Below are positions 37,909-38,187 of a DNA stretch of 52,433 nt, one piece after another; the first letter of the stretch is position 1, and each line of letters begins with the position of its first letter. The DNA is from Escherichia virus TH23: sequence record MT446397.1, one strand, 5' to 3'. Below the pieces are notes generated by a model. It did not search any database. It had not been told where the DNA came from and saw only the letters and a list, made by a program, of their open reading frames with translations. Made by a program: the position numbers and the translations under genes.

Positions 37909-38187
37909 TTAGATGGCGCACGCACCACTTGAACAGTCGTTATCACCAGCACCAGGAACGATTGCTTCTTCGTCCTGCTTCTTCTTGAGTTCTTCGATTG
38001 CTTCTTCGGCAGCACCGAAGTCTAGGTTATCAAGTGCATCAAAATCCATGAGGACTCCAGTATTGCGGTTATTGGAATGATTGCCAATGTAAGAGTCGAA
38101 CTTACATAACACCCCGTCGAGTGTCGTCTTCCCATTTAGACGAATTGGCATTAAGGGTGGACGAGGTTGGGTTCGAACCAACGACAC
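37909..38187 (-). CDS. Small acidic protein ending in an NrdA-like redox tail (DNDCSSGACAI)
   Basis: GTG-initiated 92-aa ORF (80 aa from the internal ATG at 38151); C-terminus EAIVPGAGDNDCSSGACAI parallels the E. coli NrdA C-terminus DLVPSIQDDGCESGACKI as recalled; weak ribosome-binding site. Confidence 0.35.
   Translation of the reverse strand: MSLVRTQPRPPLMPIRLNGKTTLDGVLCKFDSYIGNHSNNRNTGVLMDFDALDNLDFGAAEEAIEELKKKQDEEAIVPGAGDNDCSSGACAI

Follow-up and report, generated by a model that had tools for sequence, protein, structure and literature searches.

We analysed a 52,433-nucleotide stretch of DNA from Escherichia virus TH23 (record MT446397.1; hereafter the window), with a focus on a small minus-strand gene whose product ends like NrdA, the large subunit of class I ribonucleotide reductase (RNR). 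An initial annotation, made from the letters alone, had pointed to an open reading frame (ORF) of 92 codons with a GTG start (37909..38187, minus) that ends in ...EAIVPGAGDNDCSSGACAI. This ORF, with its NrdA-like C-x4-C end, is present as described; its extent as a gene holds for the 3′ half only. The real gene is the 46-codon 3′ half (37909..38049, minus), the same 141-nt coding sequence (CDS) that is annotated in relatives, and it encodes 46 amino acids followed by a stop codon (MDFDALDNLDFGAAEEAIEELKKKQDEEAIVPGAGDNDCSSGACAI). It starts with an ATG at 38049-38047 and stops at 37911-37909, and a Shine–Dalgarno sequence, GGAG, lies 5 nt 5′ of the ATG (38055..38058, minus). The segment containing this ribosome-binding site, GGAGTCCTCATG, is conserved in four relatives (GJ1, flopper, Ecp_YSF and PYps23T). 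By contrast, the 5′ extension of the longer ORF varies among relatives (P0001, P0002 and P0025) and overlaps two tRNA-like elements, and we do not regard it as part of the gene.

The product, hereafter the peptide, is strongly acidic, with 13 aspartate or glutamate residues against 3 lysines, and has no match in Pfam. Residues 1–28 (37966..38049, minus) make up an acidic N-terminal part, defined by our family alignments A2 and A3, that contains the motif D-[FIL]-D..L..LDF and a predicted helix. Residues 29–46, AIVPGAGDNDCSSGACAI (37912..37965, minus), make up the NrdA-like tail, as defined by an NrdA-tail profile and by end-anchored identity, and include the cysteines Cys39 (37933-37935) and Cys44 (37918-37920). 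An AlphaFold2 model computed with the family alignment has helices at residues 3–7 and 11–27 and leaves residues 28–46 unstructured, with a mean predicted local distance difference test score (pLDDT) of 70.

Similarity of the peptide to NrdA tails

In class I RNR, a cysteine pair in the disordered C-terminus re-reduces the active-site disulfide after each turnover, and is itself reduced by thioredoxin or glutaredoxin (PMC9669993, PMC4078304). We compared the peptide with the corresponding end of E. coli NrdA, whose residues 737–761 read GAEDAQDDLVPSIQDDGCESGACKI. In a gapless alignment anchored at the C-terminus, the peptide shares 9 of 16 residues with NrdA 746–761 (V, P, D, C, S, G, A, C and I), including both redox cysteines (C754 and C759 of NrdA) and their C-x4-C spacing. 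A tblastn search of the window with E. coli NrdA aligned NrdA 745–761 with 37962..37912 at an expectation value (E) of 0.54. This was the joint-best match by E-value, tied with an alignment of 70 residues and 29% identity at 19009..19218, and the remaining alignments were scattered, low-scoring (E 0.5 to >40) and in unrelated places. The bare pattern C-x(2-4)-C-x-[IL] at the C-terminus ended 3 of 929 six-frame ORFs, against 0.68 expected from shuffled sequences. Because this pattern is not rare, the likeness was subjected to three further tests, one reciprocal, one of specificity and one in the opposite direction.

For the first two, a profile hidden Markov model (HMM) of NrdA tails was built from 142 unique natural tails, taken from 120 bacterial fragments and 80 phage NrdA genes (IMG/VR). 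The window has 1490 six-frame ORFs with 20 residues or more, and of these the peptide ORF was the sole significant match (E 0.0013; next best, 0.64). Among 7909 ORFs from 19 other phage loci, the top 10 matches were exactly the homologues of the peptide (E 8e-6 to 0.05), followed by one at 0.56, and 42 of 69 members of the peptide family described below scored E<0.01. In the other direction, a profile of 12 family members (A2) was searched against all 177,635 distinct sequences in the PDB. Its ten best matches were C-termini of E. coli NrdA (E 0.05–0.11), in end-to-end alignments that begin at residue ~732; further matches were the RNR alpha tails of 7MDI and of the class II enzyme 1L1L, so that RNR tails accounted for 14 of the 17 matches. 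With a profile of all 69 members, NrdA was still ranked first, with weaker values (E 0.24–0.43). A single-sequence phmmer search of the PDB with the peptide returned nothing relevant; the tail is too short for such a search, and profiles are required.

Natural NrdA tails vary in ways that the peptide family shares. Bacterial tails read C[EAS][SG]G[AG]CK[IL], and those of phage NrdA include C-x3-C (ECGGACKI) and C-x2-C forms (CESCKI, CDSCTI, CEACAI and CESCVI). Together, bacterial and phage NrdA tails end in [KTAVI][IL] and space their cysteines by two, three or four residues, as the peptide family does. Judged by sequence, the peptide tail is within the natural range of NrdA tails and is recognised specifically by an independent NrdA-tail profile. 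The NrdA-like thiol tail of the initial annotation is thus borne out. A free peptide of NrdA residues 737–761 is disulfide-bonded to glutaredoxin 1 in PDB entry 1QFN, indicating that the tail alone is a competent ligand.

By the same comparisons, the peptide is not an NrdA. Pfam and tblastn detected no barrel domain (PF02867 or PF00317), no counterparts of Cys225, Cys439 and Cys462 and no ATP-cone, while the coil at residues 28–46 of the AlphaFold2 model, with its putatively redox-active cysteine pair, matches the disordered, acidic end of NrdA. Nor does it resemble the thioredoxin fold of thioredoxin, glutaredoxin or NrdH, proteins of ~80–110 residues with a CxxC motif at the N-terminus of helix 1: it has no Pfam match, no tblastn similarity to them and a model of two short helices and coil.

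Conservation of the peptide gene

A tblastn search found the 46-codon ORF uninterrupted in 45 phage records, with protein identities of 93.5–100%. The surrounding region, 37600–39500, is 100% identical in Escherichia viruses TH28 and TH33 and shares 87–96% DNA identity with phiEcoM-GJ1, ST32, flopper, PYps23T and other members of the genus Carltongylesvirus (Chaseviridae). Between the window and phiEcoM-GJ1, the gene differs by 13 synonymous changes and 1 nonsynonymous change, giving a ratio of nonsynonymous to synonymous changes per site (pN/pS) of ~0.02. Thus, the peptide gene is under strong purifying selection and is a working gene. One record, PP952070.1, is labelled ‘Staphylococcus phage Pel53’ (host Staphylococcus hyicus); its peptide is 100% identical to the Carltongylesvirus peptide and the neighbouring gene is 96.6% identical, and the record is probably a mislabelled or contaminating coliphage.

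The statement that the genome lacks nrdA also held: a tblastn search of the window and of the flanks of the gene with E. coli NrdA found no convincing NrdA-like sequence in any frame apart from the tail. This includes 38188..39121, the interval that the initial annotation had singled out for a translated search, where nothing of note appeared.

A family of NrdA-tail-like peptides in phages

A small ORF occupies the same locus, directly 5′ of spanin-like genes, in other Chaseviridae. Examples are the members from Erwinia phage Y2 (MDGLDNIDFDEIERRNDEKLDAQEVIEDESDCDGCKI), Proteus phage Myduc (gp32, ...EAEGDCDGCKI) and Aeromonas phage phiA050 (...AGDNDCGDGCKI). An exhaustive phmmer search of 1.84 billion representative proteins with the window protein recovered P0005, a protein of 57 residues with 57% identity and a tail of the same type, GDNDCTSGACAI. 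The family profile extended this to 80 proteins at E<=10 and 70 at E<=0.01, each standing for a cluster at 90% identity; they are 37–110 residues long, and none has a Pfam domain. They come from jumbo phages (Dickeya AD1, Erwinia pEa_SNUABM_39 and _54, Klebsiella Miami, Serratia PCH45 and Yersinia fHe-Yen9-02), from the N4-like phages G7C and pSb-1, and from further phage contigs of ~70 to 130 kb. Homologous free-standing small ORFs are found on at least five unrelated phage backbones. In the PHROGs database, relatives fall into families without an assigned function, such as phrog_10239, which the Y2, Miami, PCH45 and Myduc members match at E 3e-6 to 6e-3. The window protein itself did not match phrog_10239 and, among the PHROG profiles, found only phrog_25035 (E 0.061).

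Family members share an architecture that runs from a variable N-terminus through the motif DDFD..L..LDF[DE], a helix, mostly [RQ]-[DAG]-G-G-G-E and an acidic stretch to the C-x(2-4)-C-x-[IL] end. The full length of the window protein aligns with the family, and it has the defining features, namely a length of 37–64 residues, the acidic motif D-[FIL]-D..L..LDF, the helix and the C-x(2-4)-C-x-[IL] end. Both cysteines are kept in 69 of 69 aligned members. Among the variants of the tail are CESGACKI, CEGGACKI, CEGGGCKI, CESGACEI, CDGGGCII, C[ST]SGACAI, CTSGGCTI, CGDGCKI and CDGCKI. The AD1 and pEa_SNUABM_39 members end in ...MRDGGGEVVD[DE]KDADGCESGACKI: their last 10 residues are those of E. coli NrdA (DGCESGACKI), and their R-D-G matches NrdA 735–737, where the disordered tail begins. 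An ancient origin from the 3′ end of an nrdA is plausible, because in many members the similarity extends back to this R-D-G motif.

The tail GDNDC[ST]SGACAI was observed on at least five clearly different N-terminal backbones, namely the Chaseviridae type, the MSKVDDIL type, the N4-like MEFDDLDF type and two others. It is carried by P0005, P0016, P0050, P0051, P0059, P0066, P0076 and the window protein. Such a distribution of one tail type suggests either exchange of tail modules between lineages or convergence on a particular target.

Two ideas about what the sequence might follow were tried and rejected. The N-terminal MDFD..LDF could mimic the tail of NrdB (DTDDLSNFQL) or the tip of SSB (MDFDDDIPF), and a profile of the N-terminal half gave no signal on either. 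Also, the peptide tail might track the NrdA tail of the host; in the one host NrdA compared, that of Aeromonas, the tail reads CAGGACKI (C-x4-C), whereas the Aeromonas phage peptide ends in CGDGCKI. The Y2 and Myduc peptides have C-x2-C tails.

RNR-related genes and gene neighbourhoods

As the initial annotation had stated, nrdB is present at the far end of the genome (566..1684, minus). Its product is a class Ia beta subunit (Pfam Ribonuc_red_sm, PF00268, E 7e-50) that shares 79.5% identity with E. coli NrdB across the whole protein. It keeps W48, D84, E115, H118, Y122, E204, E238, H241 and Y356, that is, all iron ligands together with Tyr122, Trp48 and Tyr356, and its alpha-binding tail is very similar to that of E. 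coli. The orphan NrdB of GJ1 and ST32, encoded by the last ORF, has already been described (PMC6266442). The window NrdB was presumably captured from an enterobacterial host and would pair with host NrdA. The distance between the peptide gene and nrdB is ~36 kb in one direction and ~16 kb in the other. As many records, 45, have an NrdB of at least 80% identity as have the peptide, and these equal counts, compared as totals, fit one genus carrying both genes.

The window encodes no NrdA, NrdE, NrdH, NrdI, YfaE, thioredoxin or glutaredoxin detectable by tblastn. Any partner of the peptide must therefore be host-encoded. In flanks of 3–10 kb at the 20 related loci searched, tblastn with E. coli queries found no class I RNR, thioredoxin, glutaredoxin or NrdH. 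Y2 and Myduc have no NrdB (in Myduc, neither NrdA nor NrdB in the first 50 kb), and the annotation of the N4-like phage G7C includes no RNR in its non-structural half. The 60 phage NrdA matches listed, of 2275 records, do not include the jumbo phages with family members, which may nevertheless have an nrdA of their own.

The neighbours of the peptide gene differ between lineages. In Chaseviridae, the order is tRNA-like gene, peptide gene and spanin-like genes. In AD1, the gene sits between those for dCMP deaminase and thymidylate synthase. In a ~105-kb phage, the gene for PolA comes immediately before it, with ThyX nearby and, by Pfam, class III NrdD and NrdG ~3–7 kb away. The G7C region that carries it encodes dCTP deaminase and ThyX and no RNR. 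In jumbo phages, we looked for a conserved upstream partner gene and found none: the preceding genes run into the start codon but share no homology between lineages, and there is no thioredoxin- or glutaredoxin-like gene among them. In the window, a flavin-dependent thymidylate synthase gene, thyX (35741..36391, minus; E 5e-43), lies 1.5 kb 3′ of the peptide gene; G7C and L022, the ~105-kb phage contig, likewise have ThyX together with a member of the peptide family. The G7C member (MEFDDLDFEAIERANQEKLEQANREAEELENAKGNNDCTSGGCTI; positions 35695-35826 of its record) is unannotated in RefSeq. It stands by itself where the early/middle gene block ends, with a rho-independent terminator on either side.

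tRNA-like elements and other features of the window

The two tRNA-like elements overlapped by the longer ORF lie on the minus strand, upstream of the peptide gene. The one at 38081..38150 was called ‘tRNA-???’ by ARAGORN, with a 6-nt anticodon loop. Its 7-bp acceptor stem is perfect, D and T arms are present and no CCA is encoded; it lies in an insertion of ~80 nt that GJ1, flopper, Ecp_YSF and PYps23T lack. This insertion separates the first tRNA-like gene, a 95-nt element at 38156..38250 that the longer ORF overlaps in part, from the ribosome-binding site of the peptide gene; in the relatives, the 95-nt gene is ~20 nt 5′ of that site. Depositors of the relatives annotated it as tRNA-Arg that ‘may contain an intron’, and ARAGORN made no call for it in the window and called the GJ1 copy tRNA-Leu(cag). 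It has a normal acceptor stem and T arm, with ~20 extra nucleotides after position 9, and two foldings of its anticodon arm are possible, one with a 5-bp stem and a 5-nt loop, the other with a 4-bp stem and the loop GTTCGAC (anticodon UCG). The Rfam tRNA model matched it in part (38166-38221; 25.6 bits, below the gathering score), and in searches of the window and of 37800-39300 no Rfam family reached its gathering score, this sub-threshold match being the only one.

Beyond these elements lies the ORF-poor stretch of 0.9 kb that had been noted beside the peptide gene. We likewise found no convincing ORF in 38251..39121, which is ~90% conserved in relatives, with indels; an 81-codon ORF is annotated there in GJ1 only and not by other annotators. 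All large ORFs of the window are on the minus strand. One of the minus-strand products, from 41938..42558, gave a weak Pfam match to an ArdA-like antirestriction domain (E 5e-4, short of the cut-off). An exact direct repeat of 174 nt occupies 1..174 and 52000..52173, and the similarity probably runs on to the end. This is consistent with a window that is essentially the whole genome, the end repeat being a terminal repeat or an assembly overlap.

Discussion

The comparative evidence favours the second of the two readings offered by the initial annotation, that of a small, tail-only protein that would interact with thioredoxin, glutaredoxin or host RNR. We tentatively propose, at somewhat less than even confidence, that the peptide is a stand-alone copy of the NrdA C-terminal tail, carried on a short acidic helical N-terminal part, and that it most likely acts in trans as a dithiol linking host thioredoxin or glutaredoxin to host NrdA. 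It would represent the redox tail of RNR turned into a separate phage gene, a proposal based on sequence statistics and comparative genomics. A broader proposal, which we regard as evenly balanced, is that many phages of Gammaproteobacteria, some of them without RNR genes, encode a diffusible RNR alpha tail that rewires electron delivery from host thioredoxin and glutaredoxin to NrdA, and that Carltongylesvirus combines it with a captured NrdB.

In the mechanism that we envisage, Cys39 and Cys44 of the peptide would be reduced by host thioredoxin and/or glutaredoxin 1, the usual reductants of the NrdA tail cysteines C754 and C759. The reduced free peptide would then diffuse into the active site of host NrdA and reduce the C225–C462 disulfide that forms in each turnover. 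This would provide a second route of regeneration beside the enzyme's own tail, and hence more deoxyribonucleoside diphosphates during infection. In Carltongylesvirus, the host alpha2 could simultaneously be paired with the host-like NrdB of the phage. The least secure step is the direction of the effect, activation over inhibition. We favour a positive role, as an additional diffusible tail, because the genus supplies an intact NrdB that appears host-compatible and because a second reductant raises RNR activity in vitro. Activity was up to 3-fold higher when such a reductant worked on the active site in parallel to the tail (PMC4078304), a gain which suggests that regeneration is limiting. 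The genes for nucleotide and DNA metabolism near the peptide gene in the window (ThyX), in AD1 and in the ~105-kb phage also speak for the proposal.

Several observations weigh against this proposal. The individual E-values are modest (0.05–0.4 in the PDB searches), because the tail is short. Most Chaseviridae tails are C-x2-C or C-x3-C (CDGCKI and CGDGCKI), and in the Aeromonas comparison the peptide did not follow the host. The conserved N-terminal motif has no explained partner, as neither NrdB nor SSB gave a signal. In Chaseviridae, the gene is directly 5′ of spanin-like genes, not of genes for nucleotide metabolism. The peptide also occurs in Chaseviridae without NrdB (Y2 and Myduc), and the link to an orphan NrdB is therefore not general; PM1 and 4HA13 apparently lack the peptide, which is therefore accessory. 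Finally, a free tail could inhibit as easily as activate.

This last point leads to the alternative that survives best, although we consider it unlikely: the free tail would act as a decoy, competing with the host NrdA tail for thioredoxin and glutaredoxin or for docking in the active site, and would thereby lower or redirect host RNR or tie up the two reductants. The evidence for tail mimicry serves this reading equally, the free NrdA peptide does bind glutaredoxin 1 (PDB 1QFN), and the peptide occurs also in phages without any RNR gene. There is also the precedent of a small disordered protein that blocks tail-mediated regeneration: yeast Sml1, which competes with the C-terminal tail of Rnr1 and is reported to interfere with regeneration of the active site (Zhang et al. 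2007, cited in PMC4078304). On the other hand, the intact, host-like NrdB of the window phage argues that more RNR activity is wanted, and such phages carry ThyX, dUTPase and deoxyribonucleoside monophosphate kinase and need a supply of deoxyribonucleoside diphosphates. Conservation of both cysteines in every aligned member would also suit a cycling dithiol better than a dead-end trap.

It is similarly improbable, in our estimate, that the peptide has a function outside RNR, such as metal binding, disulfide-linked dimerisation (as a DNA mimic or a spanin partner) or recruitment of thioredoxin to, for example, replication, with the NrdA likeness arising by convergence on a generic acidic Cys-x-n-Cys end. 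In favour of this reading, C-termini with the bare pattern are not unusual, the protein is strongly acidic, its cysteine spacing ranges from 2 to 4 across the family, and the Chaseviridae tails depart from the C-x4-C of Aeromonas host NrdA; the conserved N-terminal motif implies a further partner. The gene adjoins or overlaps i-spanin- and o-spanin-like genes across Chaseviridae, and in the ~105-kb phage it directly follows PolA. However, the match to NrdA goes beyond the cysteines, taking in the acidic run, [ES]-G-[AG] between the cysteines, the K/A-I end and often the R-D-G start, and it reaches 10 of 10 residues in AD1, while the NrdA-tail HMM cleanly parts the family from ~9400 other ORFs. 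The adjacency to spanin genes is limited to Chaseviridae, and the peptide has no signal peptide and would therefore not meet the periplasmic domains of spanins.

Two further readings can be set aside. A precursor of an exported ribosomal peptide, with an acidic helical leader, a glycine run and a core bearing one disulfide or thioether, is very improbable. Many members do superficially resemble double-glycine leaders, with an acidic helix, GGG and then a Cys- and Ser-containing end of 14–16 residues, but the window protein has no glycine run, its residues there being KKKQDEE in place of GGG, the likeness of the end to NrdA tails is specific, and no maturation or export gene appears among Pfam matches within 10 kb on either side in three lineages or in the annotation of relatives, where no search was aimed at such genes. 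The other reading raised in the initial annotation, a decaying 3′ remnant, or pseudogene fragment, of a lost or split phage or host nrdA beside an ORF-poor scar, could appeal to the NrdA-like tail, to nrdB without nrdA and to the 0.9-kb stretch upstream, but is rejected with near certainty as an account of the gene today, being contradicted by the conservation data (an ORF intact in 45 genomes with pN/pS ~0.02), by a conserved ribosome-binding site of its own, by the lack of convincing NrdA similarity by tblastn in 38188..39121 or elsewhere, by an nrdB that is not adjacent and by homologous free-standing ORFs on at least five unrelated phage backbones.

In the literature we found no description of a free-standing NrdA-tail protein, orphan NrdB being all that is reported. 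The nearest relative in sequence terms is the tail of E. coli NrdA itself (~735–761, Cys754 and Cys759), likewise acidic and unstructured, with two cysteines 2–4 residues apart and a [KA]-I end. The peptide differs in being attached to no RNR catalytic domain, in its length of 46 residues, in an N-terminal motif foreign to NrdA and in its occurrence in phages without nrdA. The nearest functional analogue would be Sml1 of Saccharomyces cerevisiae or Spd1 of Schizosaccharomyces pombe, which are also small, largely disordered and act on the RNR large subunit; there is no sequence relationship, however, and Sml1 is eukaryotic and inhibitory, is no copy of the tail and lacks a terminal redox cysteine pair. 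Phage genes that alter the electron supply or the subunits of RNR include those for T4 NrdC, a thioredoxin, and for the orphan NrdB of phiEcoM-GJ1 and ST32. Unlike the peptide, which is a tail only and belongs to no Pfam family, these encode full-size folded proteins of known families. T7 gp1.2, a small phage inhibitor of the host dGTPase, is comparable as a small phage protein aimed at a host enzyme of the deoxyribonucleoside triphosphate pool; it is unrelated in sequence and target and does not mimic a segment of a host enzyme.

As the enzyme that determines how much DNA precursor is available, RNR is a classic control point. If our proposal of a trans-acting redox tail is true, the peptide would be the first RNR tail acting in trans and the first phage effector directed at regeneration in ribonucleotide reduction, and a natural stand-alone tail would show that regeneration can be supplied or blocked in trans. 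Carltongylesvirus would then remodel both the radical and the electron supply of host RNR without encoding the catalytic subunit. The stand-alone tail would also be a new form of viral takeover of host nucleotide metabolism, at a cost of 46 codons against the 2.3 kb of an nrdA gene. The proposal may also explain the orphan NrdB in some phages, and the peptide could serve as a scaffold for probes or inhibitors of bacterial RNR, thioredoxin and glutaredoxin. For at least 70 clusters of ‘hypothetical’ proteins in Chaseviridae, N4-like, ~105-kb and jumbo phages, it would provide a hypothesis at the level of function.

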